This document shows positions 4,019 through 59,400 of a DNA stretch of 64,000 nt, piece by piece (position 1 is the stretch's first letter; each line of letters begins with the position of its first letter). Below the pieces are notes generated by a model that saw only the letters and a program-made list of their open reading frames with translations, searched no databases and had not been told where the DNA came from. The translations under genes and the position numbers were made by a program. Where the stretch lies: assembly GCA_031552405.1 (NCBI GenBank), contig JAVBMN010000020.1, forward strand, positions 12,860 through 76,859, given 5' to 3'. This DNA comes from Bacteroidaceae bacterium (GTDB taxonomy: Bacteria; Bacteroidota; Bacteroidia; Bacteroidales; Bacteroidaceae).

Positions 4019-4026
4019 TATCTTTG
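4019..4026 (+). promoter_or_regulatory. -7 box (TATCTTTG) for the DUF418 gene
   Basis: TAnnTTTG, 24 nt upstream of ATG 4050. Confidence 0.55.
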
Positions 4027-4049
4027 CCCCTCCTAAAATACCATTTAAA

Positions 4050-5225: not shown

Positions 5226-5243
5226 GAATAAGTCCTCAACGAC

Positions 5244-6147: not shown

Positions 6148-6177
6148 AATTCAGTAATTCATTATATCTTTACGCTA

Positions 6178-6185
6178 CAAATATA
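6178..6185 (-). promoter_or_regulatory. -7 box (TATATTTG) for queD-queE
   Basis: TAnnTTTG on the minus strand, about 31 nt upstream of ATG 6147. Confidence 0.5.
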
Positions 6186-6283
6186 CTATATTATCCCGGC
6201 ACATACGGAAAATGGAATGTTTTTTAAACCCAATAAAACATAATGCACTGGTAATCAACGCCAGAACAAGCAATAAGAGAGAC

Positions 6284-6375
6284 TTTTCATCGCAGGCCTG
6301 AAGTTCTGGAATCGCAGGCCTAAGATTATAAAACTTCAGGCCTGCGACTTGAGAACTTCAGGCCTGCGATGAAAA
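6284..6375. repeat. 92-bp palindromic cluster of four CGCAGGCCTGAAG-type words
   Basis: 6284..6306 (ttttcatcgcaggcctgaagttc) is the exact reverse complement of 6353..6375. Two degenerate copies lie between them. Confidence 0.8.
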
Positions 6376-6796
6376 AGCGGATGCCCTACGGTAAAAATTT
6401 CCCCTCCCCGCGATTCATAAATTCACACAGAGTATCCTCACAACTCTAGAACCTTCCTTACAATCTTCATACCGTAAAATAAGGTAAAATTAACCCTTTT
6501 TGAGGTATCGAAATGAGCAAACTAAACCCTCATCACACTCTTCATACCGGAAACATCAAGTCCATCAAACAAAAGGATAGTGTTAATATATCGAAAAACA
6601 AGCACAATTATACGCAAAGTTTATTGGTATATTCCCAAAAAAACACTTACTTTGCCTCGATTTCTAGCCGAATATGCCCGCCTGGGAATTAACTATTTTT
6701 CAAGTGTAACAGATAACAACTACAAAAATGATACTACTCAAAGAAATATTCTTTGGTAATTTGCATTTTTTGAAGAGTTCAAAAAAAAGACGATCT

Positions 6797-7699
6797 ATGC
6801 ATATCAAAAAAGCCAAACTCATTCTATTATTGAATGGTATTGCCCTCTTTGCACCCATTTCATTATTGGCTCAGAATCAAAACGAGATTGAAACTCGCAG
6901 AGAAATAGAGAGCAGAAAGAATGCCCTTGACGCTGCCGATGAATACGGAAAAGAGCTGTACAACTTCATTGTCGACAGTCTTCAAAGAGGAGAACAAAAC
7001 GAGAATTACGAATTCACCCCCGACGAAGACAAACTCCCCCAAAGAGGATATGTAGATCAGCTACTTGGTCTTGAAGACTTAAGCCTGCCGCCGCTGGAAA
7101 CATTTATGGCATCCGTGTATGACAACGGAAGCGTAAAAGAAAAAGTGGCATTTCAAGAACAAATGGAAGCTGAATATCGCCACGTAAAGGCTGAGTGGTG
7201 GGATTACGTTCGTTTCCATGCCCAATATGCCTACGGGTACTTTTACAATTTCAACAGCTATTATTCCGATTACATGCCTGCCACCACCTCCAACGCTCAG
7301 CACAGCTGGAGCATCGGAGCCGACCTCATCGTTCCTTTGGGCGATTTGTTTGGAAGAAAGCATAAGCTAAGGACACATAAGGCTAAAATAGACCAGGCCA
7401 TCTACCTCCAAGAGGCTGTAGTTGAAGAACGAAAACTGAGAATTCTCAATGCATACAACTCTATTCTTGAGAATCTGGCTGCCGTAAAACCACGTGCTGA
7501 AACCGTAGCACTCTACGATGCAAACATGAAAGTGTCGGCTAACGACTTTATCAATGGTAATACCTCTATCATCGAGCTTTCACTGGAAAGACAGCGTCGA
7601 TCCACTGCAATCGTTCAGTACCAACAGGGACGTGTAGCCCTGTTCAGCGCCGTGCGAACACTTGAGTTGCTCACCAATATCAAAATCATTAAAGACTAA
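6797..7699 (+). CDS. TolC-family-like outer membrane protein (single OEP repeat) with signal peptide
   Basis: Start trimmed to MHIKKAKLILLLNGIALFAPISLLAQ (signal peptide). The C-terminal half (DANMKVSANDFINGNTSIIELSLERQRR...LFSAVRTLELL) resembles one outer-membrane efflux protein repeat. Confidence 0.5.
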   Translation: MHIKKAKLILLLNGIALFAPISLLAQNQNEIETRREIESRKNALDAADEYGKELYNFIVDSLQRGEQNENYEFTPDEDKLPQRGYVDQLLGLEDLSLPPLETFMASVYDNGSVKEKVAFQEQMEAEYRHVKAEWWDYVRFHAQYAYGYFYNFNSYYSDYMPATTSNAQHSWSIGADLIVPLGDLFGRKHKLRTHKAKIDQAIYLQEAVVEERKLRILNAYNSILENLAAVKPRAETVALYDANMKVSANDFINGNTSIIELSLERQRRSTAIVQYQQGRVALFSAVRTLELLTNIKIIKD

Positions 7700-24300: not shown

Positions 24301-27300
24301 ATGAAAAGTAAATTATTTATGTTCATTATGGCTTTGACCATAAGCACCTGTCCCCCAACGGCACAGGCACAGAATGTGATTCCGTACTTACCGATGCAAA
24401 ACGATTTCGGTGGAACGGCAGTGGCTGACCTGGCAACTTTTGAGCCTTCGCTCAGTCAGTTCACTCTCGAAGTAACGGCAGATGCAACAGGTACGCCTGT
24501 AAGCATTGATATGCTGGGCATTACTTACACACCACAAATCTCCACGGATCTACGCTTCGTGCTCTACAAAGAGAAAGTGTACATTTACGAAGGTGACGAA
24601 TACAAAGAAACACAGATTCCATCCCTACAGATCTCTTACAGCGGAAGCAACCTTCTTCAGAATCCGGGCTTCGAAACGGTAGTATCACTGGGAAGCGTAT
24701 GGAAGGATGGGATATACTGGAATGCGTACACTGACACAAGAACGGAAGCATGGGGAGCCACTTCCTCCACTTCGATTCGTAATGGCTCATCGTACGGCAC
24801 TTACCGTATGTTAATGCACAATAACGCCCGTTATTTGACACAACAGCTGGCCACAGGCGAAGTAAAGCCAAACACCTATTACAAAGTAGCTTATCATTGG
24901 GCCGAAGCCGCAGGCGCTAACGATGGCGGATTGTACACCATAGAATTGGGCAGTACTCAGTTTGCAAGTGACTACCTTTCCATTCCGGCACATACCGTAA
25001 CCAATACAGAAAATGCATGGCGTGACTTTGAAACAACCTTCAAAACCGGATCAAATGTCGACATAAATAATCCCGTTTGGTTTACTCTGCACAGAAGCAA
25101 TTCAAAAATAGACTACCTTGACGATATTTCACTATTGGAAGGTACAGCCGCAGTAGGCATCACCGGCGCAGTTTCGGCACAGTATGCCGCTGAAGTAGTG
25201 GCTGCTCCGGAAATGACACCCAACTATGCCGCAGGTGATGCATTTGACATGTATCCTTACTATCTGGTCAATCCTAACTTTGATGTGGATTATTCGGGAT
25301 GGCAAAAAACCACGAACGGCACCATACAACGCGGAACCGGTATAAAGGCCGATGGTACGCTTTTACCTGCCGGAGACGGGAAATTACAGGTATGGGGAAT
25401 CACAAGCGCAGGAAATATTTATCAATCTCTTTCAGATCTTCCTAACGGGAAATACAAACTAAGGGCTGCTGTGTATGCCAGTCCGGTCACTCAGGATGGG
25501 CTTTACCTGTATGCCAATCAGCAACAAACGGTGATTACTGATGCGGTGGCAACCACCAATGCCTATATTGAAGTGGAGAATGCAATTGTGGTAGACGGGA
25601 ACCTGGAGTTTGGCTTGAAACTCACTGTTGCTCCAAGTGCCACTGCTGAAGTGGATTTGGACAAAGTTAGTCTGTTCTATTACGGTCCTGATCACTCTGC
25701 TCAGGCCGAAGCCATCCTGGCGCAGATTGCCTCTATTGAAACGTTGCTTGAAAGCCCGATGAATACCGCCATAAAAGCCGAGTTAACAGCTAAGAAGAAT
25801 GCAGCCTACAATGCAGCAACCGCCTCTCCGCTTGTTCCTTCTGACTTGGAAACAACCGCTACTGCATTGAGTAGTGTGATTACTACAGCTAATGCTTCCG
25901 CTGCAGCATACGTAATTCTGGACAATTTCCTCAACGGTGTTGAATCTGCATTAGACTCTTACAACAGTTATTCAGGTTACGCTACCTATGCCGCCATCGT
26001 TCTTACTGCAAGAACTGCTTACACCAATGGAACAACCGCTGATGCAGATATCCAAACTGCAATCCTCGCCCTCAAAGCAGCCAAAAACAACTGCAAGTAC
26101 TCAGACGGAGCAATCCATAACGACCCTAATCTGCTTTATGGATGGGATGCCCAAAAAGACGGCACAACTACCCCCGAAGAGGCAGGATGGATCGCCTCAC
26201 AGGATGATCTTATTTGGGGAGGACAGCTTTCGGGAGCTAATGAAGACAAAGATGCATTATACCGTACCAATTCTCTTGATAAATATGCTTTCTATGCCAA
26301 ATCCAGAAAGAACAATGAAGTGATTACATACGCATACCCAATCTACCTAGAAGCTGGCAAAACCTATTTCTTTGAAGGAAAGAACTGGCGTAGAAACGGG
26401 CAACAAGCCGCCGATGCAGCCCATGTCACATTTGCCGTTTCATCTACCCCTTCCAGTACAGGCACTATCTTGAACTCACAAACAATACTTTGCAATAAGG
26501 AAGGATACCTTGATTATTCCTTCTCTTTTGATGTGACCACCACAGGGGTTTATTACCTTGTCCGTTATGCGGAAGAACCTACATCAAGTAATTACCAGGA
26601 TGTATCTGCCGATTTATCCCTAGTTGAAGCCTATACACTTACCGACGGAGCAGCCACTGTGGTTGGTGAACTCACCCCATCCATCATCACAGAGCTTGGA
26701 GTTGCCGATATTATCTCTGTAGATCTTACCAATACCACTGCTTCCAATGCTGTAATACTAACCCTTAAAAATCCCAACACTTTAGTACACAATGCACCTG
26801 CCAATGTGACAACCAATGGGATTAAGGTATCTAACAATGAATTTGTAGACACCCCCAACTTGACTGACCTGCAACCTTTCTCAGCCACAGGCGATATTGC
26901 TGGTGCAATATCCTACCAACGTGCCTTCACCGGAGTAGCTAACGAAACTGACGGAGCAACTGGAGGATGGGAAGTATTCAACGTGCCGTTTAAGGTAACC
27001 AGCGTAAAAGCCACCATCGATGGTAAAGAGTACGAATACCTGCCTTATACAGAGTGGAAGGCCACGGATGATGCAACGGTAGAAGGTTGTGGATTCTTCT
27101 GGATTAAGAAGGCCACAGAGGGTAGCAATGCTATCAGCAGCAGTGTAGAGAGTCTTGAGGATATGACTGCGAATGAACCGTATCTTATCGCATTTCCCAG
27201 AATATCTATTGAAGGACGTCCACAGTTTAATGTAAATGGTGAAACCTTCACTTTTAGCGGCGAAAACGGTGTAGAGGCAACTATTAATCTTCAGCCCGCA

Positions 27301-27717
27301 GAAGCAGGTAACTTCAGCTTCAACCAAAGCTATCTGGAAGGTACTATGCAGAATGTGTATCTGCTGAATGCTGCCGGTGATGCATTTGTAAAAGAGGCAG
27401 AGGCAACAATCGTTCCTTTCCGTCCTTTTGTGACATTTGATAATCCAATAGGTGCAGCTCCTTCGCAGTTCCTTATCAATGGCAATAATGATGTGACTAA
27501 TATAGAAGAAGTGAAGGCTCGCCTTGCTGCTGCCAAGATGATTATTACTGTAGCTGAGAACGGAGTAACTATCTACTCGGAAAATGAAGGCACGGTATTG
27601 GTATATGACCTGAACGGTGCATTAGTGAAGAGCATAGCTATCAGCAATGGTGAGAACTTCATATCTCTCCCGAGCGGTGCATACGTCATCCACAATAAGA
27701 CAGTTATCGTAAAATAA
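24301..27717 (+). CDS. Secreted modular protein A1; no catalytic domain recognised
   Basis: Signal peptide ending AQAQ. N-terminal IPYLPMQNDFGG domain, NPGFE and NPNFD CBM4/9-like modules, and alanine-rich helical repeats. About 330 aa of the C-terminal region are shared with A2. The tail VLVYDLNGALVKSIAISNGENFISLPSGAYVIHNKTVIVK resembles the type A T9SS sorting domain. Confidence 0.75.
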   Translation: MKSKLFMFIMALTISTCPPTAQAQNVIPYLPMQNDFGGTAVADLATFEPSLSQFTLEVTADATGTPVSIDMLGITYTPQISTDLRFVLYKEKVYIYEGDEYKETQIPSLQISYSGSNLLQNPGFETVVSLGSVWKDGIYWNAYTDTRTEAWGATSSTSIRNGSSYGTYRMLMHNNARYLTQQLATGEVKPNTYYKVAYHWAEAAGANDGGLYTIELGSTQFASDYLSIPAHTVTNTENAWRDFETTFKTGSNVDINNPVWFTLHRSNSKIDYLDDISLLEGTAAVGITGAVSAQYAAEVVAAPEMTPNYAAGDAFDMYPYYLVNPNFDVDYSGWQKTTNGTIQRGTGIKADGTLLPAGDGKLQVWGITSAGNIYQSLSDLPNGKYKLRAAVYASPVTQDGLYLYANQQQTVITDAVATTNAYIEVENAIVVDGNLEFGLKLTVAPSATAEVDLDKVSLFYYGPDHSAQAEAILAQIASIETLLESPMNTAIKAELTAKKNAAYNAATASPLVPSDLETTATALSSVITTANASAAAYVILDNFLNGVESALDSYNSYSGYATYAAIVLTARTAYTNGTTADADIQTAILALKAAKNNCKYSDGAIHNDPNLLYGWDAQKDGTTTPEEAGWIASQDDLIWGGQLSGANEDKDALYRTNSLDKYAFYAKSRKNNEVITYAYPIYLEAGKTYFFEGKNWRRNGQQAADAAHVTFAVSSTPSSTGTILNSQTILCNKEGYLDYSFSFDVTTTGVYYLVRYAEEPTSSNYQDVSADLSLVEAYTLTDGAATVVGELTPSIITELGVADIISVDLTNTTASNAVILTLKNPNTLVHNAPANVTTNGIKVSNNEFVDTPNLTDLQPFSATGDIAGAISYQRAFTGVANETDGATGGWEVFNVPFKVTSVKATIDGKEYEYLPYTEWKATDDATVEGCGFFWIKKATEGSNAISSSVESLEDMTANEPYLIAFPRISIEGRPQFNVNGETFTFSGENGVEATINLQPAEAGNFSFNQSYLEGTMQNVYLLNAAGDAFVKEAEATIVPFRPFVTFDNPIGAAPSQFLINGNNDVTNIEEVKARLAAAKMIITVAENGVTIYSENEGTVLVYDLNGALVKSIAISNGENFISLPSGAYVIHNKTVIVK

Positions 27718-27735: not shown

Positions 27736-27915
27736 ATGAAAACAAAGAAAGAATATAACCGGCCTCATATAGAGATTATTGAGCTGGAACTGGAAGAAAT
27801 AATGATCACAGCTTCGCAACTTAAAGAAAGCTTTGGAGATAAAAGTGGAGTAAACCTCCAGCAAACAAACTCTTTCTGGAACGAAAACAACATAATAAAA
27901 GGCGACGAAGAGTAG
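27736..27915 (+). CDS. Conserved small acidic protein (59 aa), unknown function
   Basis: Below the 60 aa track cutoff and found by hand: MKTKKEYNRPHIEIIELELEE... It starts 18 nt after the A1 stop. Its paralog at 49814..49996 sits in the same position behind A2 and differs by about 12 synonymous third-position changes. Confidence 0.6.
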   Translation: MKTKKEYNRPHIEIIELELEEIMITASQLKESFGDKSGVNLQQTNSFWNENNIIKGDEE

Positions 27916-31982: not shown

Positions 31983-34922
31983 TTAATCGGGGAAGACTTC
32001 CTTCACTGTTTGTGTGGAACCATCTTCGTAATTTTTCCTGACGATATACATATCACCAGCTATCGGTTCGTATATTTCAAGCCCTTGCAGGTTGTAATAT
32101 TTTCTCGACACTTCTTTTAACTCTGCACTGACTCCTTCCAAAGAAGAAAGGTTCTTGACTGTCACAGTGTAGTCTTTCTTACTGCTCTGACCGTAGGCAT
32201 TCAGGAATACGGATGTGTACACACCGGCATCGGCAGAAGTGACGCTGGCAACACTATACTCCCTCGTTGCCGCCCCGTGATTATTAGGCCCGGCAAAGGC
32301 CCATGTACCCACAGCCGAAGAGAGGTTGGGGCCAAAAGAAAGGCTGATTCCCGGTGTCACATTATTTATTGTAGCGGATTGCTGCCATCCTGTGGCGGCG
32401 CCTATTCTATAATAAGGATAAATCGTATGTGGTGTATAAGCCGCCGTGTTTTGCAACATCTCCAGTTCGGCAACTGTAGCAAAAGTACCCGACAAGGATG
32501 TCAAGCGGAAATAACGCGCCTGGATGGGGGTAAAGTACACCTCCCCGCAGTATGGCATCCAGCTTCCCCCTGATACGGCGGTCCACTCTTTACCATTCTG
32601 GCTCACCTGGAACACAAACTCACGAATGATCCCGTTTATCGAGTTATCCAATCGGGGTACACAAAGAAAACCTGATACTTCATACTCTGCACCCATATCC
32701 ACTTCGATGTAGTGAGGAGCAGATACACCACTGTATTTGGTATGCCATATAGTACCCGTTTTACCGTCAATGGCATTGGCGGCTGCTCCGTTTTCGCCAG
32801 CTGTTTCCTGACTGCTGAAGCCATGGATCTTCCAAGCCGTTTTGGGTACACGATTGGTGGTAGCCGTTTCGCGCCACTCTCCGGTGAAGAAATCGATATC
32901 GAACTGCTGCCTATAGGTAAAGGTGCAGGATTTACCACTAAACTGGATGGGGAATATAATCGTTTTTGACTCTGCCAAACCGGGATCCTGCCAGCGGTCG
33001 CCCACATACAAGTAGGTAGTAGCATCCGTGCCCTGAACAGTCAGGATGGAAGCTGCCTGAGTATCAAAAGTAACTCCATTACCAATATTACTCAGTCCCG
33101 ACCACCCGGAAGTAAGAGAAGAAGAATACGAGATCTTAGCCTGATTGGGATCCCAGCCGGTACAGGCAGAAGAGATCATGAAATAAGTATTGTCCACCCG
33201 CACAATGGCAGGCGCTTCACGAGATTGCCCGGCAAATAGAACCGTATGGCTCACGGCACTCAGATAATCATCAGAGAGTTTGAAAAGACCGAGGTCCCGA
33301 TTCTCATTGGTGGTAGAAATAAAGTAGGCAGTACCATCGTGATCCACAAAGACATTACAGTCGCGCGATTTAATATTCAGCGGCCTGCCTGCCCAGTGGA
33401 ACTTATACGGTCCGTTCACTGAATCGCAATAGAACACAGCCGCTTCCGATGCGCCGTAGTTTCCCTGTTCCCAATGACACCACACCACATACTTTCCGGT
33501 TTTTGCGCAATACATTAACTTGGGCCGTTCTATAAAACGACTTCCGTCTGCCAGTGCGCTATGGGTAGAATTGGTAATAATACGGCGTTCGAACTTCCAG
33601 TTCACTAAGTCCTTGGAAGAATACATGTTCACATCCGGATTCCAGGTCCGGTCGCGGTTCTCGCCAATCATATACCAGGTATCACCCACCTTCAGGAATC
33701 CTGCGCCATGTGCCTGTACGGAGGTTCCGTTGGTTGCTTTCCATAAGGCACCATTGCGGATAGTGGCCCATTCTGAAGGCCTTCCCTCCAGATAGAGGGC
33801 CATGGCCTCATTAATAGCAGTTACAGCAGCGGCAATATCCTTTCCAACAGGGAATTCATACACAGTCTGGGCCAGCGCAATGGCTGCCTCAAACGCTTCC
33901 TTATTGACATAATCGGAAGTGCTGAACAGCTTCTTTGCCTTTGCAAGGTCTTTCTCCAAGCCCTCGCATGCTACAAGTTGAACACCTTTTTCAGAAAGAA
34001 GAGTGATCATTGACTCAATGGATGCACGTTGATCCTCAGGACTGTCGTACATAGCCTGTGCAGTAGCAATGGCAACTTCAAAACTGCTTTTGTACGCATA
34101 TACGGAGGCAGCAAGTTGGTTGGTCAGGCTTTCAACAGCTTCCTTCAAAGGCTTGTAGGCCGCCATCGCCGCTTTGTACTCAGCTACAGCCGCATCCAGC
34201 GCAGCAAGGGCGGCAATAAGGCTGGCCTCATCTTGTGCTACCGTTTCTGCACGTTTAATTGCATTTCTCAGTGCAGGAAAGCCGCAATACCCGGGCCTAC
34301 CGCCCTCCAAGGTATCCGCGATAGCCAATTCCAGCTTTTCCGCCAGGATCCGGTTGTATCCTTCCATATCACTTCCATAATAATATAGTGAGATGTGATC
34401 CAGTTCGATAGTCGTCTGACCGGAAGTGGCCAGATCCAGCCCCAGTTCCAGCGTACCGTCATACACCGTGCCCGTGGCTTCATAATATGCCGAAGCCTTA
34501 CTGGTAACAGGCGTTTCCCCGGTATTGGCATACACCGAAAGCGTTCCGCCAAAGACCGCATATAAGCCCACTCTCACGGCATACTTCCCATTTGTCAAAC
34601 CAGAAATTTGTTGATACACCTTACCCGAAACACCTCCACTGCTCCAAAGCTGCCAATGGTTCTCGCCATCTACAATCACCGAGCCGTCTCCTTTGGCAGC
34701 AGTAATTATCTTCGAGAGATTTGGATTAAATGTCTTCTCCCACCCATTCGGTGCAAAAGTACTGCCGCCCGTGTTGGCCGCATCGTCATCAAATTCCGGG
34801 TTTACCACTTTAGAGGTTACGTCTGTGCGCTCCTCATCCGTCTCTGTCGGTGCATAAGCCCAGCCGGCAATGGCACATATCGTAAAAAGGATCGATACTG
34901 AAAGGAAAAACTGTTTTTTCAT
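31983..34922 (-). CDS. Secreted GH43 enzyme B1 (NHWQ-type CBM-like module, helical repeats, GH43 propeller, CBM32/F5-8 type C, Ig-like domain, T9SS-type tail)
   Basis: Start trimmed to MKKQFF, with a -7 box at 34960..34967. GH43-like blocks are AHGAGFLKVGDTWYMIGE, SSKDLVNWKF, DCNVFVDHDGTAYF and REAPAIVRVDNTYFMISS. The discoidin-like segment is AANAIDGKTGTIWHT...ARYFRLT. The tail is RKYYNLQGLEIYEPIAGDMYIVRKNY. Confidence 0.8.
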   Translation of the reverse strand: MKKQFFLSVSILFTICAIAGWAYAPTETDEERTDVTSKVVNPEFDDDAANTGGSTFAPNGWEKTFNPNLSKIITAAKGDGSVIVDGENHWQLWSSGGVSGKVYQQISGLTNGKYAVRVGLYAVFGGTLSVYANTGETPVTSKASAYYEATGTVYDGTLELGLDLATSGQTTIELDHISLYYYGSDMEGYNRILAEKLELAIADTLEGGRPGYCGFPALRNAIKRAETVAQDEASLIAALAALDAAVAEYKAAMAAYKPLKEAVESLTNQLAASVYAYKSSFEVAIATAQAMYDSPEDQRASIESMITLLSEKGVQLVACEGLEKDLAKAKKLFSTSDYVNKEAFEAAIALAQTVYEFPVGKDIAAAVTAINEAMALYLEGRPSEWATIRNGALWKATNGTSVQAHGAGFLKVGDTWYMIGENRDRTWNPDVNMYSSKDLVNWKFERRIITNSTHSALADGSRFIERPKLMYCAKTGKYVVWCHWEQGNYGASEAAVFYCDSVNGPYKFHWAGRPLNIKSRDCNVFVDHDGTAYFISTTNENRDLGLFKLSDDYLSAVSHTVLFAGQSREAPAIVRVDNTYFMISSACTGWDPNQAKISYSSSLTSGWSGLSNIGNGVTFDTQAASILTVQGTDATTYLYVGDRWQDPGLAESKTIIFPIQFSGKSCTFTYRQQFDIDFFTGEWRETATTNRVPKTAWKIHGFSSQETAGENGAAANAIDGKTGTIWHTKYSGVSAPHYIEVDMGAEYEVSGFLCVPRLDNSINGIIREFVFQVSQNGKEWTAVSGGSWMPYCGEVYFTPIQARYFRLTSLSGTFATVAELEMLQNTAAYTPHTIYPYYRIGAATGWQQSATINNVTPGISLSFGPNLSSAVGTWAFAGPNNHGAATREYSVASVTSADAGVYTSVFLNAYGQSSKKDYTVTVKNLSSLEGVSAELKEVSRKYYNLQGLEIYEPIAGDMYIVRKNYEDGSTQTVKEVFPD

Positions 34923-34959
34923 ATGCTTTAAGAATATAAGTATCATTTAGAAAGAAGTT

Positions 34960-35192: not shown

Positions 35193-38138
35193 TTATTCCG
35201 CAGAGAGAATTGTTTTTTCAGTGGCTACCGCACCGCTTTCATAGGTCTTTTCTATTACATGCACTCCATTTCCTAACGGACCTGATACTTCCAGGCCTTG
35301 CAGGTTATAGTACTTTCTCGATACTTCCTTATCATCCGCACTTACTCCTTCCAGTGAGGAGGGATTCTTTACGGATAAGGTATACTCTTTTCTGCTGCTT
35401 TGGTTGTACGCATTGAGGAATACAGAGGTATATACTCCTGCGTCTTCAGGGGTGATGCTGGATATGTTGTACTCACGAGTAGCTGACTGGTGACCGTTAG
35501 GGCCGGAAAACGCCCACGTACCAGTGGCCGAATAATTAGGACCGAAAGCGAAAGCCACCCCTGGATTCAGATTGCTGATGGTAGTGGCCTGCTGCCAGCT
35601 ACCGCTACCTATCTTGTAATAGGGAAGGATGTTTTGCGCGGTATACGCAGTGGTATTCTTCAACATATCCAGTTCGGCAATGGAGGCATACGTACCAGCA
35701 AGGGCAGTGAGGCGGAAATAGCGTGCTGAAACAGGCGTAAAATACACCTCGGCGCCATACGGCATCCAGCTACCGCCTGATACCGTTTTCCAATCCGTTC
35801 CGTCTACGCTGACCTCAAACAGATACTGGCGAATCAAGCCGTTCGTAGAATTATCCATGCGCGGAGTACAAAGGAAACCAGATACTTCATGTGTGGCACC
35901 CATATCTACCTCGATGCTGTGAGGAGCCGCAGCTGCCGTACCACTGTACCGGGTATGCCACTTGGTATTCACATTACCGTCAATGGCATTGGCAGCAGCT
36001 CCGCTTTCACCGCTGGTTTCCTGACTGCTGAAAGCACGGATCTTCCAGCCTGTTTTAGGCACACGGTTGGCTGTTGTTTCCGTTTCACGCCATTCACCGG
36101 TAGCAAAGTTTACATCAAATTGCTGCCTGTACGCAAAGGTGCAGGATTTACCGCTAAACTGAATGGGGAATATAATGGTTTTCGACTCTGCCAAGCCTGG
36201 ATCCTGCCAGCGGTCGCCCACGTACAGGTAAGTAGTACCTTTCGAGCCTTGCACCGTAAGTATGGAAGCGGCCTGAGTATCATAACTGATACCGTTACCA
36301 ATATTGCTCAGCCCCGACCATCCGGAGGTGAGGGAAGAGGAATAAGAGAGCTTTGCCTGGTTGGGATCCCAGCCCGTACAAGCAGAAGAGATCATGAAGT
36401 AAGTATCGCCCACCCGCACGATGGCCGGTGCTTCACGTCCCTGTCCGGCAAAGAGGACAGTATGACTCACTACGCTCAGATAGTCATCTGAAAGACGGAA
36501 GAGGCCAAGGTCACGATTCTCATTAGTGGTGGATATGAAATACGCAGTACCGTCATTGTCTACAAAGACATTACAGTCACGCGATTTCACATCAAGCGGG
36601 CGTCCTGCCCAGTGGAACTTATACGGCCCGTTTACCGAGTCGCAATAGAACACAGCCGCTTCGGAAGCGCCATAATTGCCTTGTTCCCAGTGGCACCATA
36701 CCACAAATTTCCCTGTTTTTTCGCAGTACATCAGTTTAGGACGTTCGATAAAGCGGCTGCTACCCAAGGAAGAATGGGTAACTCCGTTTTGAATAATCTT
36801 ACGTTCGAACTTCCAGTTCACAAAGTCCTTGGTAGAGTACATATTCACATCCGGGTTCCAGGTATTGTTACGGTCCTCACCTATCATATACCAAGTATCG
36901 CCCACCTGTACGAATCCGGCTCCATGAGCCTGCACGGAAGCACCGCTGGGGATTTTCCACAAGGCACCGTTGCGAATGGTCACAAACTCAGAGGGGCGAC
37001 CCTGCAGATATACCTTCTGCGCACTTTCCAGAGCGACAAGGGCGTCATTAAGGTTCTTTCCGGAAGGGGCATCATACACAGCCTGCGCTACGGCAATGGC
37101 GGATTGAAATGTAGTCTTACCCGGATAATCAGACTTATTATATAAGGTTTTTGCATCTGTAAGATTCCTACCCAATACATCGTAGGTTGTAAGCTCAGCC
37201 ACTTTCACAGAAAGAACATTTATGGTGGAAGCAAGGGATGAACGCTGGTCCTTAGGGTTGTCATACACAGTCTGTGCAGTTGCAAGCGCTGCCTCCATAT
37301 CGTTCTTATCAGGATACGCAGAAGCTGCCAACTGCTTTTTGAAGGCTGCTATAGCCTCCTTTAAGGGCTGGTATGCAGCAAGGATGGATTCGTACTCGGC
37401 AATGGCGGCATCCAGGGCAGCGATCGCGGCAATCAGGGCGGCATCGGTCTGCTCAACGGCCTTTCCCCGTGCAATAGCTGCGCGCAGTTGCGGCAAGGCG
37501 CAATATCCGGGACGGTCTGCAGCCAAAGTATCCGCCACGGCCGCAGCAAGCTTTTCGGCCAGGAGCTGGTTGTATCCTTCCAGGTCGCTGCCGCAATATT
37601 GCAGGGTGATGTGGTCAAATTCCAAGGTGGTTTGTCCGGTAGTGGCTATATCAAGGCCTATTTCCAACATCCCGTTATGCACCGTTCCGGTCGCCTCGTA
37701 ATAGGCCGAAGCGTTGTTTACCACATTGGTTTTCCCCTCATTGGCATAGAGGGTAACCGTCCCGCCAAAAGAGGCGAACAGTCCGGCTCTCACCGTATAT
37801 TGCCCGTTGGGCAGGTTGGAGATGGTCTGACTTACTTTCCCTGCCACGGCGCTTCCGTTCCAGATCTGCCAGTGGTTCTGGCCTTCTACAATCACCACTC
37901 CGTCCCCTTTGGCAGCTACGCTCATCTTTGAGGTGGCAGGGCTGAATGTTTTTGTCCACCCTTTCGGAACAAAACTGCTGCTGCCCGTATTGGCGGCATC
38001 GGAGTCGAACTCCGGATTTACCACTTTGGAGGTCACATCCGCACAGTCTTCATCAGCCGGCACCTGTGCGTAGAGTAAAGTGCCTGAGATGCAAATCGCC
38101 AAAAAGGCACACACTAAAAAGAGAAACTTTTTCTTCAT
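35193..38138 (-). CDS. Secreted GH43 enzyme B2, tandem paralog of B1 with the same domain order
   Basis: Colinear with B1 along its whole length (roughly three quarters identical by eye). Start trimmed to MKKKFLF, with a -7 box at 38161..38168. Confidence 0.8.
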   Translation of the reverse strand: MKKKFLFLVCAFLAICISGTLLYAQVPADEDCADVTSKVVNPEFDSDAANTGSSSFVPKGWTKTFSPATSKMSVAAKGDGVVIVEGQNHWQIWNGSAVAGKVSQTISNLPNGQYTVRAGLFASFGGTVTLYANEGKTNVVNNASAYYEATGTVHNGMLEIGLDIATTGQTTLEFDHITLQYCGSDLEGYNQLLAEKLAAAVADTLAADRPGYCALPQLRAAIARGKAVEQTDAALIAAIAALDAAIAEYESILAAYQPLKEAIAAFKKQLAASAYPDKNDMEAALATAQTVYDNPKDQRSSLASTINVLSVKVAELTTYDVLGRNLTDAKTLYNKSDYPGKTTFQSAIAVAQAVYDAPSGKNLNDALVALESAQKVYLQGRPSEFVTIRNGALWKIPSGASVQAHGAGFVQVGDTWYMIGEDRNNTWNPDVNMYSTKDFVNWKFERKIIQNGVTHSSLGSSRFIERPKLMYCEKTGKFVVWCHWEQGNYGASEAAVFYCDSVNGPYKFHWAGRPLDVKSRDCNVFVDNDGTAYFISTTNENRDLGLFRLSDDYLSVVSHTVLFAGQGREAPAIVRVGDTYFMISSACTGWDPNQAKLSYSSSLTSGWSGLSNIGNGISYDTQAASILTVQGSKGTTYLYVGDRWQDPGLAESKTIIFPIQFSGKSCTFAYRQQFDVNFATGEWRETETTANRVPKTGWKIRAFSSQETSGESGAAANAIDGNVNTKWHTRYSGTAAAAPHSIEVDMGATHEVSGFLCTPRMDNSTNGLIRQYLFEVSVDGTDWKTVSGGSWMPYGAEVYFTPVSARYFRLTALAGTYASIAELDMLKNTTAYTAQNILPYYKIGSGSWQQATTISNLNPGVAFAFGPNYSATGTWAFSGPNGHQSATREYNISSITPEDAGVYTSVFLNAYNQSSRKEYTLSVKNPSSLEGVSADDKEVSRKYYNLQGLEVSGPLGNGVHVIEKTYESGAVATEKTILSAE

Positions 38139-38160
38139 GGTTATAACATTTAAAACTCTA

Positions 38161-38168
38161 CAAAGGTA
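38161..38168 (-). promoter_or_regulatory. -7 box (TACCTTTG) for B2
   Basis: Minus-strand TAnnTTTG, about 23 nt upstream of ATG 38138. Confidence 0.55.
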
Positions 38169-38252
38169 TGGCAAGACAGGATAAGAAACAGGACTCTCTC
38201 CCTTCAGAGAAAGACGTTACGGCATCAAAGTGCCTATTTCCTGTATAAACCG

Positions 38253-47343: not shown

Positions 47344-49794
47344 ATGAAAAGTAAATTACTTATGTTCCTTGCGGCTTTGACCGTAAGCGCCTTTGCCACA
47401 ACGGCACAGGCACAGAATGTGACTCCGTATTTACCGATGCAAAACGATTTCGGTGGAACGGCAGTTACCAACCTCGCAACTTTTGAGCCTTCGCTCAATC
47501 AGTTTACCCTTGAAGTAACAGCAAGTGCAGTGGGTACACCCGTAAGCATTGGCATGCTGAGTATTACTTACACGCCGACAACCTCTACTGAGGTACGCTT
47601 TGTACTTTACAAAGGTAAGGTGTATATTTACGAAGGTGGCGAATATAAAGAAACGCAAACACCTGCTGGCAATCTTCTTCTGAATCCGGGTTTTGAATTG
47701 GGCACTACTGTTGGTGCAGGAACCAACAACTGGAATGCCTACGATGCTACCCCAACTCTTAGTTGGAACAATACTACTGGTGCTGGCTCTGTTAGAAACA
47801 CAGAAGGTTCTATAAAATCAGGTACTTACAGTTTGTTAATGCGCGACCCATTTGTATATCTAACACAAAATTTGCCAGCAGGAAAGATTAAGCCAAACAC
47901 TAATTACAAAGTGGCATATTATGCGCGTATGTTTGATAACAACCGAGCAATTGCCACTTACCAATTAGAACTGGGAAGTACCGAACGGGGAGTGGATTAT
48001 GGTACAGTAGTTGCGCACACATCAACCAACGCAACATATACAGAAGTTATCCGCTATATCCAAACCAATGATTTGGTTAATGAAAGTGAGGACGTTTGGT
48101 TTTGCCTGCATCGTACAACTAAGACAAGGAATGATGCCTACGATTGGGTCGACGATTTTTCATTAGTGGCAATTGGTATCTCCGGCGCAGCTTCGGCACA
48201 GTATGCTGCCGATGTAGTGGCGGCTCCGGAAGGAACTACACCCAACTATACTGTAGGTGATGTACTTGACATGTATCCTCACTTCCTAATCAATCCTGAA
48301 TTTGATCTTTATACAGGAACTGGCAACAATGTGTCCTATACAGGTTGGAGCAATACAGTAGGTGCACAACAAACCAAATTAAGCACTGGTGCAAAAGGAA
48401 ATCCAATTGTAATTGAAGCAGCTCCTAACAATCATTGGCAATTATGGAGCGGTAATGCGATGAAAGGTAAAATATCTCAAGGAATTTCGAATCTTCCAAA
48501 TGGGAAATACAAGGTTAGCGCTGCCATTGTTGCAACGAGCCTAACAACGATATCCATATATGCAAATGAAGGACGGAAAACTATTGGAAATAACGGATTT
48601 CATGAAACCACAGGAATAGTGATTGACGGAACCCTAGAAATTGGTTTAGATATCAATTTATCAGCAGGGCAAACTGTTGACTTCGACCACTTCTCTTTAC
48701 ATTATCTTGGTCCTAATTATACTACATTTAATAACGGAGCAGCTGCCGTGACCGGTGAAATCACTCCATCTATTGTAACAGAACTTGGAGCTGCTGGCAT
48801 TACCTCTGTAGATCTTACTAATGCCACCGCTACCGGCGCTGTGATACTAACCTTTGACAATCCTAATACCTTGGTATATAATGTACCCGAAAATGTGACA
48901 ACCAATGGTATTGAAATATCTAACGGTGCATTTGTGGGTGAACCCAGCCTGACCGACCTGAAACCTTTTGCTGCTGCAAACGGCATTACCGGTGCAATAT
49001 CCTACCAACGCGCCTTCACCGGAGTTGCCAATGGAGCAACCGGAGGATGGGAAGTTTTCAACGTGCCGTTTAAGGTAACCAGCGTAAAAGCCACCATCAA
49101 TGGTACAGAGTACGACTACCTGCCTTATACAGAGTGGTATGCTGCGGATGATGCCACAGTGGAAGGCAAAGGATTTTTCTGGATTAAGAAGGCCACCTCA
49201 GGTAGCAATGCAATCAGCACCAGTGTAGAGAATCTTTCGGCAATGGAAGCCAATGAGCCGTATCTCATCGCGTTTCCGAAGACAACTATTGAAGGACATC
49301 CACAGTTTAATGTAAATGGTGAAACCTTTACTTTCAGTGGAAACGGTGTAGAGGCTACCATTACTCTTCAGCCCACACAGGCCGGTAATTTCAATTTCCT
49401 CCAAAGCTATCTGGGAGGTACTGTTCAGAATGCATATCTGCTGAATGCTGCGGGTGATGCATTTGTAAAAGAGGCAGATGCAACAGTTATTCCTTTCCGT
49501 CCTTTCGTGACATTTGGTAATCCAGTGGGTGTAGCTCCTTCGCAATTCCTTATCAATGGGAATAACGATGTGACTAATATCGAAGAAGTGAAGGCACGCC
49601 TGGCTGCTGCTAAGATGATTATTACTACGGTTGAGAACGGAGTAACTATCTACTCGGAAAATGAAGGCACGGTATTGGTGTATGACCTGAATGGTGCATT
49701 AGTGAAAAGCGTAGCTATCAGCAATGGTGAGAACTTCGTATCCCTCCCTGCCGGTACATACGTCATCAACAATAAGACAGTTATCGTAAAGTAA
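47344..49794 (+). CDS. Secreted modular protein A2, a shorter paralog of A1
   Basis: The N-terminal ~110 aa and the C-terminal ~350 aa are near-identical to A1. It lacks the ~320 aa central insertion of A1 and has the same VLVYDLNGALVKS...NNKTVIVK tail. Confidence 0.75.
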   Translation: MKSKLLMFLAALTVSAFATTAQAQNVTPYLPMQNDFGGTAVTNLATFEPSLNQFTLEVTASAVGTPVSIGMLSITYTPTTSTEVRFVLYKGKVYIYEGGEYKETQTPAGNLLLNPGFELGTTVGAGTNNWNAYDATPTLSWNNTTGAGSVRNTEGSIKSGTYSLLMRDPFVYLTQNLPAGKIKPNTNYKVAYYARMFDNNRAIATYQLELGSTERGVDYGTVVAHTSTNATYTEVIRYIQTNDLVNESEDVWFCLHRTTKTRNDAYDWVDDFSLVAIGISGAASAQYAADVVAAPEGTTPNYTVGDVLDMYPHFLINPEFDLYTGTGNNVSYTGWSNTVGAQQTKLSTGAKGNPIVIEAAPNNHWQLWSGNAMKGKISQGISNLPNGKYKVSAAIVATSLTTISIYANEGRKTIGNNGFHETTGIVIDGTLEIGLDINLSAGQTVDFDHFSLHYLGPNYTTFNNGAAAVTGEITPSIVTELGAAGITSVDLTNATATGAVILTFDNPNTLVYNVPENVTTNGIEISNGAFVGEPSLTDLKPFAAANGITGAISYQRAFTGVANGATGGWEVFNVPFKVTSVKATINGTEYDYLPYTEWYAADDATVEGKGFFWIKKATSGSNAISTSVENLSAMEANEPYLIAFPKTTIEGHPQFNVNGETFTFSGNGVEATITLQPTQAGNFNFLQSYLGGTVQNAYLLNAAGDAFVKEADATVIPFRPFVTFGNPVGVAPSQFLINGNNDVTNIEEVKARLAAAKMIITTVENGVTIYSENEGTVLVYDLNGALVKSVAISNGENFVSLPAGTYVINNKTVIVK

Positions 49795-50372: not shown

Positions 50373-53177
50373 ATGAAAAAAACAAAGTTATTCTTTTTAC
50401 TTGCCGTCCTGGCAGCATGGTGCAACCTTGCCCCGCTGCATGCGGCCGCGATTCCTTACCTGCCGGTAAAGGCGAATCTGGAAGGAAGCACAATTGACCT
50501 AGCCGCCTTCGAACTGCCTGTCGGCGATTTCAGTATGGACATCCAGTGCAATGCCGGAGCCGGCATTTCCATTTGTGGCGTATATGAATACACCGCCGAA
50601 GGAACCAGCCTGCGTATTGCCAGAAAGAACGGGACAGTGGTAGTATACGAAGGAAACGCGTATAAAGCCACATTAACTTCCGCCCTCACTCCCATTGCCG
50701 GTATTACCAATGCTACTTCGGCCACGTTCCTTGACGGAGCTGCCTACGGCCAGCAGGTTACATTGGGTGTAGAGGATTATTGGGATATGACCCTGTATGT
50801 AATAAACCCAGAGTTCGATAATGGAACAATGGTGAACAAAGCCCCTACAGGTTGGATACAAACCACTTCTGCGAGCACCTCTAAAATTAGTACAGCGGCA
50901 AAAGGAGACGGTTCCGTGATCTTTGATGGCCAAAATCACTGGCAGATCTGGAATGGGGGTGGTCTTACCGGAAAGGCTTACCAGGTTATTGCCGGATTGC
51001 CCTTAGGTAAGTATACATTCAAAGCAGGCCTGTATGCAGCTATTGCCGGTCCCGTGCATCTATATGCCAACAGTAGCCGCATTGAAGTGACGAATGACTC
51101 TTCGGCCATTTACGAAGTAGAAGCCATTGTAGTAGACGGTACACTGGAAATAGGTATGGACATTGCCACCACCGGAGGTACCACGCTGGAATTTGACCAC
51201 ATCACACTGGAATATTACGGCGCCGACATGAGTGCAGTAATCAAATCCTTTCAGGAACTTGTGGAAGCAGCCCAGGCAAGCGCAGCCCAGCACATGAACG
51301 TAACGGTGAAGTCTAAACTGAATGCCGCCATCTCAGCAACAGAAACCATCCTGCAGAACCCCACGGAGGAAGCTATCGTACAGGCATCCCCCATACTTAA
51401 ACTGGCCAATGACACTGCGAAACTATCCATTACCGAATATACGAAGTTCAAGGCAGCCATTGACACTTCCGAGGTACACATGGCCATTCATACTGGTCTG
51501 TCTGGGTTTGCCGCATATTCTACTGTATATAATAACACAAAAGCTGCATACAATGCTGCACAGATACAAGGTGATTCCATAAACAGCTTGATCTCTGCAT
51601 TGACAGTGGCAGAAGTGGCCTGCCTCCTGACTCAGGAAGCTCCGTATGATGCTACGTTCGTCATTGTAAACCCCAGCTTTGAAAACTCTGACAGCTACAA
51701 GGGTTGGGTAAACAACGGAATGCAGACGCAAAGTAACGCTTCTTTTGAACTGAAAGTAGGAAACCGTTATGTAGAGAAATGGATTGGTGATGGAAACATG
51801 CTTGCCGATGCCAGTATTACCCAAACCATCCGCAACCTCCCCAACGGTGCTTATGAACTGACCATCGTAGGTTTCTGTACCCAAGGCGGACTTGGTGCTG
51901 AAGGCGGATTCCTTTTTGCCAACAAAGGAAAAACACAGATGGGCGAAGCGGGCGAATATACTGTAGAAGCTGTAGTTATGGACAATACACTCACCTTTGG
52001 TATCAAAACAGAGAGTTGCACAGGCAACTGGATTGCTGCCGACAACTTCCAACTCCGATTCATTGGTTATAATCTCTCGGTAGCTGTTGCCACATTGCAG
52101 GAAATGATTACTGAAGCAGGAAATCTCTATAGTAGCGGAAGCCCTATGTCACAAAGTGCACTTGATGCACTGGAAACGGCCATAAGCACAGCAAACGATG
52201 CGTGCAGCGCTCCTACGGAAGAAGGCATCAAGGCGGCTTCAACCGCCCTAAGCACAGCAATGGATAACGTGGAAACATCCATCCAACAGTACGCCAACCT
52301 GGTAGCTGAGCTCGACAGACTTGCCGATCTCTGCGACAACGGCGCCGAACTGTACCCTGATGGACACGAAGCTTTTGTAAATGTGTATTTTGAAGTAGCC
52401 GAGCAGTTTGGTGAAGGAGCGTATGACTCAGAAGGTGTCACCGCAGCCATCAAGCAACTGAAAGAGGCTGAGTTTAGCTGCTACCTGTCTTCTACTCCTC
52501 CCATCGATGCGACTTTCATCCTGAAAAACCCGAGCTTCGAAGATGGCAATGCCAGCTGGACTGTAAAATCAGGTGTACTCAGCACCAGTTCTGCAAACTG
52601 CATAGACGGTTTGAAAGCTGGTAACACCTGGAATGCCACCTATAGAGATACTGACTTCTATCAGGAAATCAGCCTGCCCGCAGGAGAGTATGAACTGACT
52701 GCTGTGATGCGTGTAGGTGTTGTGACCAATCAGTACATCTATGCAGAAATCGGAGATCAGAGATCCAAATCTCAACCCGTAGAATTCGCCGGAAACTGGG
52801 GTGAAGCAGGCGATTTAAGCGCCTGGAACGATATGTCACTAGCCTTTACAGTACCCAGTAGCGGCACCGTACGCATCGGAGCAGCCTGTGAATTGGGCGA
52901 TTTTAGTGGAGACGCCTATTTCCAGATTGACAACTTCCGCCTGACTCTCATTGATAAGCTTTCTTCTACAGAAACGATACAAGAGGATGATCACTCACTC
53001 CGCGTAGCCGGAAGCAAGGGTGGCGTATATGTGACAAGCCCCGCAAGCTGCACAATCGCAATCCATGCCATAGACGGAGTGTTGCTAAAAACTCTGGAGA
53101 TCAGCGAAGGCGAAACCTTCATCGACCTGCCACAAGGCACATACCTGATCGGTGGCAAGATAGCTATCGTCTTATAA
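50373..53177 (+). CDS. Secreted modular protein C; no catalytic domain recognised
   Basis: Signal peptide, then AIPYLPVKANLEG. Modules begin VINPEFDNG...NHWQIWNGG, IVNPSFENSD and ILKNPSFEDGN. The tail is AIHAIDGVLLKTLEISEGETFIDLPQGTYLIGGKIAIVL. Confidence 0.75.
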   Translation: MKKTKLFFLLAVLAAWCNLAPLHAAAIPYLPVKANLEGSTIDLAAFELPVGDFSMDIQCNAGAGISICGVYEYTAEGTSLRIARKNGTVVVYEGNAYKATLTSALTPIAGITNATSATFLDGAAYGQQVTLGVEDYWDMTLYVINPEFDNGTMVNKAPTGWIQTTSASTSKISTAAKGDGSVIFDGQNHWQIWNGGGLTGKAYQVIAGLPLGKYTFKAGLYAAIAGPVHLYANSSRIEVTNDSSAIYEVEAIVVDGTLEIGMDIATTGGTTLEFDHITLEYYGADMSAVIKSFQELVEAAQASAAQHMNVTVKSKLNAAISATETILQNPTEEAIVQASPILKLANDTAKLSITEYTKFKAAIDTSEVHMAIHTGLSGFAAYSTVYNNTKAAYNAAQIQGDSINSLISALTVAEVACLLTQEAPYDATFVIVNPSFENSDSYKGWVNNGMQTQSNASFELKVGNRYVEKWIGDGNMLADASITQTIRNLPNGAYELTIVGFCTQGGLGAEGGFLFANKGKTQMGEAGEYTVEAVVMDNTLTFGIKTESCTGNWIAADNFQLRFIGYNLSVAVATLQEMITEAGNLYSSGSPMSQSALDALETAISTANDACSAPTEEGIKAASTALSTAMDNVETSIQQYANLVAELDRLADLCDNGAELYPDGHEAFVNVYFEVAEQFGEGAYDSEGVTAAIKQLKEAEFSCYLSSTPPIDATFILKNPSFEDGNASWTVKSGVLSTSSANCIDGLKAGNTWNATYRDTDFYQEISLPAGEYELTAVMRVGVVTNQYIYAEIGDQRSKSQPVEFAGNWGEAGDLSAWNDMSLAFTVPSSGTVRIGAACELGDFSGDAYFQIDNFRLTLIDKLSSTETIQEDDHSLRVAGSKGGVYVTSPASCTIAIHAIDGVLLKTLEISEGETFIDLPQGTYLIGGKIAIVL

Positions 53178-56443: not shown

Positions 56444-59400
56444 ATGAAAAAGAAACTCTTATCCCTTGTACTCTGCCTTATGGCATGTATGAGTATCACC
56501 CATGCACAGACGGGCATCCCCTACCTCCCTTTAAAGGGTCAATTCGGAGGGGCGCAGGTCAATGACCTCACTAATTTTGTGCCCAGTCTGGGCGATTACA
56601 CGCTGGAACTACAGGGCACAAAAGGCACTGAGATCCGGATTGCATTCGCAGGTATCAGTTATACTCCGGCAGAAACGTCTACCGTACGTTTCACCCAAAA
56701 AGAGGGGAAAGTATATGTGTTTGAGAATGGGCTGTTCAAGACTATTCTTACCCCCGATTCGAAATACGCCACAAGCGGGGACAATATTATTCAGAACCCC
56801 GGCTTCGAACAAGTAGAAGCAGAACTGCTGGCCACCGGCCGCTGGAAACCCACCATTTGGGATACCTGGAACGGAGGCATGCCTACCTGGGGAGGTGACA
56901 CCGGGAAAACCAACGTACGCGAAGATGCTGCCTATCGCTCAGAAGGCACAAAGTCTATCATTATGCACAGCGACTCGCGCCAGTTGCTGCAGGAGCTGCC
57001 GCAGAACTCACTGGAAGCCGGTGCACATTACCTACTTGCGTATGACTACTGGACCTCAGCCGGAAGCGGAAATGGGGGTATCACCTATCAGATCATGCTC
57101 CGGAAGGATAAGTATTCGAATGAATTTCAAACGTTTTCAGGCCATACCACCCTCGAATCGGGCACTGCAAAGACCTCCTTCTCCACCCTCTTCCAAGTGG
57201 CGGCAGATGTACCGGAAAGTGTGTGGTTCGTACTCCAGCGCAATGAAGACAAGGTAGACTGGCTGGACAACTTCAAACTATACAAGATCATACCCGAAAA
57301 CAAAGGAATCACCGGAGCAACCTCCGTGGCATATCTTTCCGGTGCGGCATATGCTCCGGGCAACCTAAGTTTTGAAAACGGAGATTATATCGACATGACC
57401 GGCCGCATTACAAATCCGGGCTTTGACAATAACACTACCGGATGGACCCTTGAAGCAAACGGTTCTAAGATCAGTACCGCAGAAAAAGCCGGCGGACTGA
57501 TCCCCGCTGGCCAAAACCACCTCCAGTTCTGGGTAGGAAGCGGTGGCGTCACAGGTAAAATGTACCAAACCCTCACCGGTCTACCCAATGGGAAATACAC
57601 CGTAAAGGCAGCTATCGCTCCAGCATTCAGCGGCACCGCCTCTCTTTATGCCAACTCGGGCAAGACAGCTGTTGTCTCAGGAACATCCAAACAGTATGAA
57701 GTACACGGAATCGTATTTGACGGTACACTGGAAATGGGTCTGGAAATGGCCACATCCGGAAGCCCTACGATTGATATTGACGATTTCAAACTCTTCTACT
57801 TAGGAATAGAGGCCGAAGGTTACTTGCAAGTACTACAGGCCAAGATTACAGAGGCCAAAGCAGATACCACCGCCATGCACACCGCCACCGGACGTCCCGG
57901 TTACCACAACCTGCCCCAGTACCGCCTGGCATTGGAAAAGGCTGTTAACCGACCTGACGATGAAGCGGCTACACTGACAGAGGCCCTGGCTACACTGAAC
58001 GAGGCCATTACGGAATATGAGGCCATCCTTGAGGCATACACCCCGCTGAAAGAAGCCATAGACAAGCTAAAAGTCCAACTGACCGCTTCAGGCTATCCGG
58101 TCAAAACCTCTTTTGAGAGTGTCCTCGCAGCCGCACAGGCAGTGTATGACAGCCCGAACGATCAACGCGCCCATATTGCAGCAAGCATCCAGACAATAGC
58201 TGAGAAAGAAGCAACCCTTACCACCTACAAGGACCTGAAAACGGCCATCGCAAGTGCCACCGCGATACTAAACAGTACCTCCTATGCAGGGAAAGCAGCC
58301 TTCCAGACGGCCATCCAGGCAGCTCAGGCGGTAACCGAGAATCCCGAAGGGAAGGATCTGAGTGTCGCCATTGCCGCCTTAAGCACTGCGCAGACAGCCT
58401 ATCACAACTCCCAGTACACCAACCCGGCCGTTCAGCAGACGGTATCCAGCGTAGACACCAGTCTGAAAGGGTCTGATAAGTTTGTACTCAGAGTGGATGG
58501 GAAGCCCTTCTACATGACCAATATACAGGTACGTCTCGACAAGCTGTATGGTTATGAAGGCTGGAACGATGCCGCCCTGGAAGCGGTGGTAAAACGTGCG
58601 GCAGAAGACGGTTTCAACACCCTGTCCATCCCCATTCACTGGCGCGAGGTAGAACCGGTGAAAGACCAGTTCAACTGGACCATCCTGGACAAGTTCATGG
58701 GCTGGTGCAAGAAGTATGACGTAAAGATGGAAATGCTGTGGTTCAGCTGGAGCAGTGGCGGACGGGTGCAATACCTGATGAACACTGGCGAAAAGCAAAC
58801 CCTCCGCACCCCTGATTATGTATGTTCACTATCCGGAACCAGCGAATTCAACATGTTGCGCAAAGAATGGGAATACTCCTTAGACTGGCGGGATACCAAT
58901 CTGCGCAACCGCGAGAAATATGTAATGGGACAGATCATGGAGCACATCGCCGTATGGGATGCCAACAACGGCAATCCGCACACCGTGGTAGGCGCCCAGC
59001 TGGGTAACGAGGCACGCAATCATGGAGACAATTCAGCCACCGCTGCCGAGATTATAGAGTACTACCACCATATAGGCGCCGGGATAAAGGAGTCGAAATA
59101 TGTGATCTGGACCCGCCTCAACTGCGTAAGCTGGGAAACCCCCGGACGCATCAGCGCCAACGAAGCCAAGCGCAACAGCAGTACCGGTACCAATATCGAC
59201 TTTGTAGGCATTGACATCTACGGAACAAGTGCTTCAAGCATCCTGGGAAATATGGGCGGCCAGTTGCCTCATACAGGTAAAAATTATTCCATGATTATGG
59301 AAATCGATGCCAAAGACTCCAACTCCCCCATCTACCAGATGGCAGCGCTTGCCGGAAACAAGGCTTTCGATTATTACAACATGGCTGTGGTTGACGGTAA

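Follow-up and report, generated by a model that had tools for sequence, protein, structure and literature searches.

A predicted split β-sandwich hosting a CBM-like jelly-roll at the N-terminus of probable type IX secretion cargo in a Bacteroidaceae bacterium

Four secreted proteins, here called A1, A2, C and D, are encoded in a 64,000-nucleotide stretch of the genome of a Bacteroidaceae bacterium (contig JAVBMN010000020.1, positions 12,860 to 76,859; hereafter the window), and all four carry a similar segment of about 80 residues, the IPYLP segment, right behind the signal peptide. We assign a probability of about 0.5 to the reading that this segment and a short downstream strand form a conserved split sandwich which scaffolds a variable, exchangeable carbohydrate-binding module (CBM) as a substrate-binding head on proteins secreted through a type IX secretion system (T9SS). 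The IPYLP segment would be the N-terminal, larger half of a small β-sandwich, completed by a strand with the motif GITGxxSxxYLxGxAYAP (the GIT strand). In most members a CBM4/16/22-like jelly-roll with an NPGFE start would be nested between the two pieces, in the C-type proteins the pieces would be contiguous, and the outcome would be a rigid two-domain head of about 300 residues. The carriers would be Sec-exported multi-modular proteins, cleaved by signal peptidase I (SPase I) and sorted by the T9SS, that degrade or bind glycans. At the mature N-terminus, the distal end, the head would present its CBM to plant cell-wall polysaccharide, with the sandwich as constant scaffold and the nested jelly-roll as variable specificity element.

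The IPYLP half, the nested jelly-roll and the GIT strand

The open reading frames (ORFs) of the four proteins all lie on the + strand: A1 at 24301-27717 (1138 aa), A2 at 47344-49794 (816 aa), C at 50373-53177 (934 aa) and D, which contains a GH35-like barrel with DUF4978, at 56444-60511 (1355 aa). Each opens with a typical Sec signal peptide, and the IPYLP segment begins 0-3 residues later. By alignment and profile match the segment spans aa 24-107 of A1 (24370..24621, +; profile E = 4.6e-44), aa 24-107 of A2 (47413..47664, +), aa 25-104 of C (50445..50684, +) and aa 22-104 of D (56507..56755, +). In the alignment of the four, A2, C and D were 82%, 35% and 41% identical to A1 and 13 columns were invariant, P-Y-L-P included; in-frame PYLP occurred nowhere else in the window. 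When the entire assembly (66 contigs, 3.79 Mb, 88% complete) was translated in six frames and searched with the four-sequence profile, the window members were recovered at E = 5e-44 to 5e-37, as were six further proteins at E = 2e-33 to 9e-7, spread over five other contigs, for a genome total of ten IPYLP proteins. Because of this recovery, the similarity is far beyond chance. Alignment and profile search thus agree with the homology proposed in the initial annotation, whose ranges for A2, C and D were right within a few bases, but whose end for the A1 segment (24645, aa 115) overshoots by about 8 residues into a linker.

A profile of the ten genome sequences, searched against 1.84 billion representative proteins, gave 162 matches at E ≤ 1e-3 and 101 at E ≤ 1e-10, which on re-scoring came to 133 domain copies in 132 proteins. 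Among the untruncated copies, 107 of 117 had the N-x-x-F-E start of a jelly-roll within 75 residues behind the IPYLP half. The GIT motif (G-I-T-G-x-x-S-x-x-Y-L-x-G-x-A-Y-A-P; the 'GITGATSATYLSGTAYAP' strand) followed at +178 to +222 in 61 of the 133 copies; two more had it at +7 or +12, and P0016 and P0113 were likewise contiguous by eye. The short spacing defines the C-type proteins (C itself, its paralogues on contigs 45 and 16, P0016, P0113 and P0132), in which the motif stands about 7-12 residues behind the IPYLP half, without a jelly-roll.

Within the window, A1 has its nested NPGFE jelly-roll, CBM4/16/22-like when aligned to the modelled D unit, at aa 117-281 (24649..25143, +) and its closing GIT strand at aa 286-304 (GITGAVSAQYAAEVVAAPE; 25156..25212, +; by alignment). 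The corresponding elements of A2, also placed by alignment, are at aa 110-276 (47671..48171, +) and aa 278-296 (48175..48231, +). Those of D are at aa 114-281 (56783..57286, +), where an AlphaFold2 (AF2) model gave Foldseek matches to CBMs, and at aa 288-305 (GITGATSVAYLSGAAYAP; 57305..57358, +), where the model predicts an 8-residue β-strand (model residues 271-278) at a predicted local distance difference test (pLDDT) score of about 93. In C the GIT strand (aa 110-128, GITNATSATFLDGAAYGQQ; 50700..50756, +) adjoins the IPYLP half, with no nested jelly-roll.

Genome-wide, a stricter regular expression for the GIT motif matched only IPYLP proteins, and the IPYLP protein of contig 48 (C48) has the motif without the usual NPxFD module behind it. 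For these two reasons we assign the motif to the unit upstream of it and not to the one downstream. The candidate assignment of the strand as an N-terminal extension of the NPEFD/NHWQIW module was rejected: no GIT-motif match was obtained in the two GH43/F5_F8 proteins (31983-34946 and 35193-38174) in which the initial annotation had read that module, and C48 has the motif without the module.

The three parts differ in how well they are conserved. Identities for the IPYLP half, the jelly-roll and the GIT strand were 82, 42 and 83% between A1 and A2, 74, 38 and 78% between A1 and its closest homologue P0006, and 42, 30 and 50% between D and A1. Judged by these alignments, the two flanks are co-conserved and appear to act as one unit while the insert diverges. 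The jelly-rolls of L030 and L031 were 45-46% identical to that of the contig-31 protein (C31) and grouped with those of C31 and C32, whereas their IPYLP halves and flanks were nearest to the FGG type. This clash between jelly-roll and flank groupings suggests that the insert may have been exchanged between subfamilies. The four window proteins had been described as otherwise differently composed, a description that does not hold for their N-terminal ends, which share a conserved unit of about 300 residues made up of IPYLP half, jelly-roll and GIT strand. Many carriers, among them the C48, C31, C50 and C32 proteins and L029-L036, have in addition a conserved linker between IPYLP half and jelly-roll (YPDIF..(T)DD....KTGIY...NL..NPGFE, alignment columns ~101-135), which A1, A2 and D either lack or have in shortened form.

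Structure prediction treated the isolated IPYLP half and the longer unit very differently. For the 84 residues of A1 alone, AF2 returned a pLDDT of 77.5; the first three 10-residue blocks scored 43, 64 and 69 and had no strands, and the first 28 residues were disordered. For aa 22-322 of D (301 aa, modelled from a 17-sequence alignment) the pLDDT was 87.4 and the predicted template modelling score (pTM) 0.79; the first three blocks scored 88, 92 and 90 and gained β-bridges, and the IPYLP half as placed in D scored 88-97. On these models the IPYLP half does not behave as an autonomous domain, its N-terminus being ordered only in the long construct. Foldseek of the 301-aa D unit gave 114 PDB matches at E ≤ 0.001, all to the insert, with CBM70 (4d0q, 2.4e-6), CBM16, CBM22, CBM4 and CBM61 at the top (E = 2e-6 to 1e-4; TM-scores normalised to the target 0.6-0.69). 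The nested NPGFE module is accordingly predicted to have the β-jelly-roll fold of the CBM4/9/16/22 type (Pfam CBM_4_9 clan), whose typical N-x-x-N-P-x-F-E starting strand it shares; the IPYLP half, however, lies outside all such matches, there is no Pfam CBM match, and ligand binding by the nested module is putative. On indirect evidence we infer that IPYLP half and GIT strand pair physically as a split β-sandwich hosting the CBM-like jelly-roll.

The IPYLP segment fits no named CBM, Pfam or NCBIfam family; the initial annotation had likewise recognised no named CBM or Pfam family in it. Ten domain sequences searched against Pfam (E ≤ 10) gave only scattered single-member matches, the best to Y_Y_Y at 0.0032, and the full proteins gave nothing above gathering threshold over aa 24-110 in Pfam-A and NCBIfam. 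No dockerin or cohesin Pfam model matched any protein or domain sequence scanned, the IPYLP profile found nothing significant among all PDB sequences (best E = 0.8), and a full-text literature search for 'IPYLP' returned irrelevant matches only. Foldseek of the isolated A1 model, itself of moderate confidence, recovered no solved structure with significant similarity (0 matches at E ≤ 0.001; best 5ik7_B, E = 1.6, probability 0.18). Most of its best non-significant matches were LamG/ConA-like sandwiches (laminin LG4-5 at E = 1.6, agrin, neurexin LNS, galectin and DUF1080-type hydratases), but none was significant in sequence or fold, and about 100 residues is too small for a canonical LamG sandwich of two sheets and ~150-200 residues. 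A LamG-like relationship is a lead only. The IPYLP/GIT head is an undescribed family of accessory modules with a nested-domain layout, inside a well-known class of proteins, the multi-modular carbohydrate-active enzymes (CAZymes) and T9SS cargo.

Distribution and position of the module

The segment proved wider than a single duplication family. Its approximately 132 representative carriers come from several Bacteroidales lineages; the named records outside the taxonomic family include several 'Bacteroidales bacterium' metagenome-assembled genomes (MAGs), Prevotella sp. UBA3675 and a Candidatus Symbiothrix MAG. Among 200 other genomes sampled from the same family, eight were positive with one copy each, and among 400 sampled from the remainder of the phylum there was none. 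In the domain tree the ten copies of our genome fell into at least five lineages (A1/A2; D; C48; C with its contig-45 and contig-16 paralogues; and C31/C32/C50), and D, C48, C31, C32 and C50 were each nearer to a copy in another organism than to the genome's other lineages. On this sampling and tree the module is rare and patchy, yet old. With ten IPYLP proteins against one in each of the eight other positive family genomes, the genome also displays a marked lineage-specific accumulation.

All ten genome copies sit directly behind a signal peptide. Family-wide, 111 of the 133 copies (83%) have a projected start no later than residue 45 (mode ~23-25), directly behind the signal peptide, whereas 22 (17%) are internal and start at projected residue 60-601, so that mature N-terminal placement, initially taken as fixed, is a strong tendency and no rule. 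The internal copies checked lie behind BNR_4 and PA14-like domains or a GDSL esterase, and some others, by eye, behind another CBM-like module; one protein carries two IPYLP copies.

Outside the window, a 1389-aa BNR_4 and PA14-like protein on contig C32 (~3200-7400, −) contains two longer units related to the IPYLP unit; both have an N-half of about 125 residues, a jelly-roll and a closing '...IDYITVEEGAFAP' strand. The longer unit matched the IPYLP profile in hhalign with a probability of 95.8% (E = 6.8e-9); its concatenation with the jelly-roll deleted had no match in Pfam or the PDB, and the closing strand resembles, by eye, that of LamG-like domains. The MAG homologues L030, L031, P0045 and P0053 have a canonical IPYLP unit at the same spot behind BNR_4/PA14.

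Export, sorting and the surrounding locus

The genome encodes a T9SS, with SprA/Sov (TIGR04189) at 2767 bits and GldM/PorM (TIGR03517) at 533 bits, and all ten IPYLP proteins end in a tail resembling a T9SS C-terminal domain (CTD). In A1 the T9SS-type sorting domain occupies the last ~75 residues (27490..27714, +), with a match to TIGR04183 below cut-off, and equivalent tails lie at 49567-49791 in A2, 52950-53174 in C and 60284-60508 in D (all +). Among 56 family C-termini scanned at E ≤ 0.01, CTD models matched 31 (Por_Secre_tail 22/56, DUF6383 9/56); P0001 and P0046 were above the Pfam threshold, and P0053 (24.1 bits) was slightly under. GldM was present in all eight other IPYLP-positive family genomes, and IPYLP in none of the 58 GldM-negative genomes. 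T9SS cargo is recognised through its C-terminal domain, where any attachment to the cell is located as well. Because sorting and any anchor both lie at the C-terminus, the IPYLP segment is unlikely to be an anchor, and the head would lie at the protein's distal end. A role as lipoprotein anchor was ruled out, there being no proper lipobox (A1 reads I-S-T-C and A2 has no Cys at all).

The A1 signal peptide, read from its sequence, comprises aa 1-23 (24301..24369, +; ...TAQA↓QNV, the arrow marking cleavage), with Gln at +1. Gln directly follows the predicted SPase I cleavage site in A1 (AQA↓Q; 24301-24372), A2 (AQA↓Q; 47344-47415) and D (THA↓Q; 56444-56509), and an A-x-A↓Q site stands immediately before the IPYLP domain in 27 of 93 carriers with a signal peptide. 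Gln at +1 fits the Bacteroidetes Q-rule, by which the N-terminus becomes pyroglutamate (PMC5837995), and A1, A2 and D probably carry a protective pyroglutamate at the N-terminus (PMC5837995, PMC10653852).

The locus encodes a hemicellulose-type set comprising a GH115, several GH43s, a GDSL esterase and the GH35-like barrel with DUF4978 of D, together with two ORFs of ~1350 aa which the initial annotation read as hybrid two-component sensors. The cluster at 24301-60511 is built from proteins with CTD-like tails, and no SusC/D-like match was found among the window ORFs scanned; its organisation suggests a T9SS-based rather than a Sus-like cluster. The small acidic ORFs behind A1 and A2 (27736-27915 and 49814-49996) were rejected as a conserved partner, having no detectable similarity to the 94-aa ORF in the equivalent place behind P0006 (L037:5125-5409).

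Possible functions of the head

A substrate-binding head is more plausible than the docking or anchoring role initially favoured, because the N-terminus is expected to be distal and the insert is CBM-like. We infer that the carriers bind glycans and may be anchored at the cell surface, although the window proteins might instead be released after secretion. Several observations weigh against this reading. For the 17% of copies that are internal, the argument from a distal tip fails. Since a sandwich lacking any nested CBM is retained in the C-type proteins, it could serve some separate function. In the IPYLP half no ligand-binding residue can be pointed to, and its invariant positions (P, Y, L, P, F, Y52, R61, plus hydrophobic residues in the strands) seem for the most part structural. 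The two AF2 models compared are of different sequences, A1 alone and D in the long construct. As to secretion, the window tails score under the thresholds (TIGR04183 17.7 in A1 and 17.9 in A2 against 23 bits; DUF6383 14.8 in C against 23.7; no match in D), and the association between T9SS and IPYLP is statistically weak, given that a T9SS is present in 71% of family genomes and that related genomes do not count as independent samples.

The sandwich could instead be purely structural, an inert 'X-module' or cap that lends stability to the exposed N-terminus and to neighbouring modules and binds neither sugar nor protein, with the jelly-roll simply the first of many CBM-like repeats. We regard this as possible, if on the unlikely side. 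The conserved positions are mainly hydrophobic or Pro/Gly, no ligand-binding family is matched, the carriers contain many more jelly-roll modules and helical linkers, and the likely pyroglutamate of A1, A2 and D and the A-x-A↓Q sites elsewhere in the family would agree with a protected terminus. A mere cap would, however, hardly be expected to be paired with one jelly-roll type and one closing strand over ~130 divergent clusters, or to be reused internally behind catalytic domains with the same three-part layout. It is very improbable that the segment is a secretion or folding helper, that is, a pro-domain or intramolecular chaperone at the N-terminus on which folding in the periplasm or competence for the T9SS depends, and which is perhaps removed after export. 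Its location directly behind the signal peptide would suit such a role, and other T9SS cargo such as the gingipains have N-terminal pro-domains, but internal copies exist, structure prediction ties the segment to elements downstream of it, no conserved processing site lies behind it, and the other T9SS cargo of the locus (the GH115, the two GH43/F5_F8 proteins and the GDSL esterase) has no profile match.

By analogy with cohesin and dockerin, the sandwich might be a docking or assembly module, binding a surface receptor or other cargo to build a multi-enzyme complex at the cell surface, which we consider doubtful. Conservation within the head is highest in the sandwich, next to a diverging CBM; the C-type proteins retain the sandwich without a nested CBM, ten differently composed cargo proteins of one genome share it, and in 83% of copies it sits at a free end of the protein; as in the cellulosome, a short conserved terminal module is thus shared by many differently composed plant-fibre enzymes of a single genome. 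Conservation of the scaffold is, however, equally explained by structural constraint, and 17% of the copies are internal. Ca-binding dockerin repeats are absent, Pfam finds neither dockerin nor cohesin, no binding partner or scaffoldin-like protein is known, and most carrier genomes have a single copy; for the positive family genomes outside our own this holds in eight of eight, which argues against many-enzyme assembly as the general role. More improbable still is the larger proposal that T9SS enzymes of some Bacteroidales assemble through IPYLP/GIT docking into a cellulosome-like surface complex independent of cohesin and dockerin, of which the ten members in this genome would be the enzyme complement.

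The module can also be compared with the BACON and Ig-like spacers of Bacteroides surface glycanases and with SusE/F-like proteins, which are likewise small β-sandwiches at the mature N-terminus, shared over different catalytic cargo, in Bacteroidota. Those proteins, in contrast, are N-terminally anchored lipoproteins with the sandwich as proximal spacer, whereas IPYLP carriers have a C-terminal T9SS CTD and a distal module, and there is no sequence or Pfam relationship between the two.

T9SS-secreted multi-modular CAZymes are thought to be a main route of fibre breakdown in uncultured Bacteroidales of the rumen, termite gut and digesters that do not rely on SusC/D loci, and long stretches of these proteins lack annotation. 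The IPYLP head is unsurprising in kind, but it should help annotation and merits structural and binding studies: a recurrent head of ~300 residues offers annotators a new module boundary, curators of CAZy-type databases a candidate family, and glycan-binding studies a compact construct. If the sandwich binds protein, it would point to an undescribed surface assembly system. If it is true that the jelly-roll sets specificity while the sandwich stays constant, the head would be a natural scaffold for swapping binding specificities.

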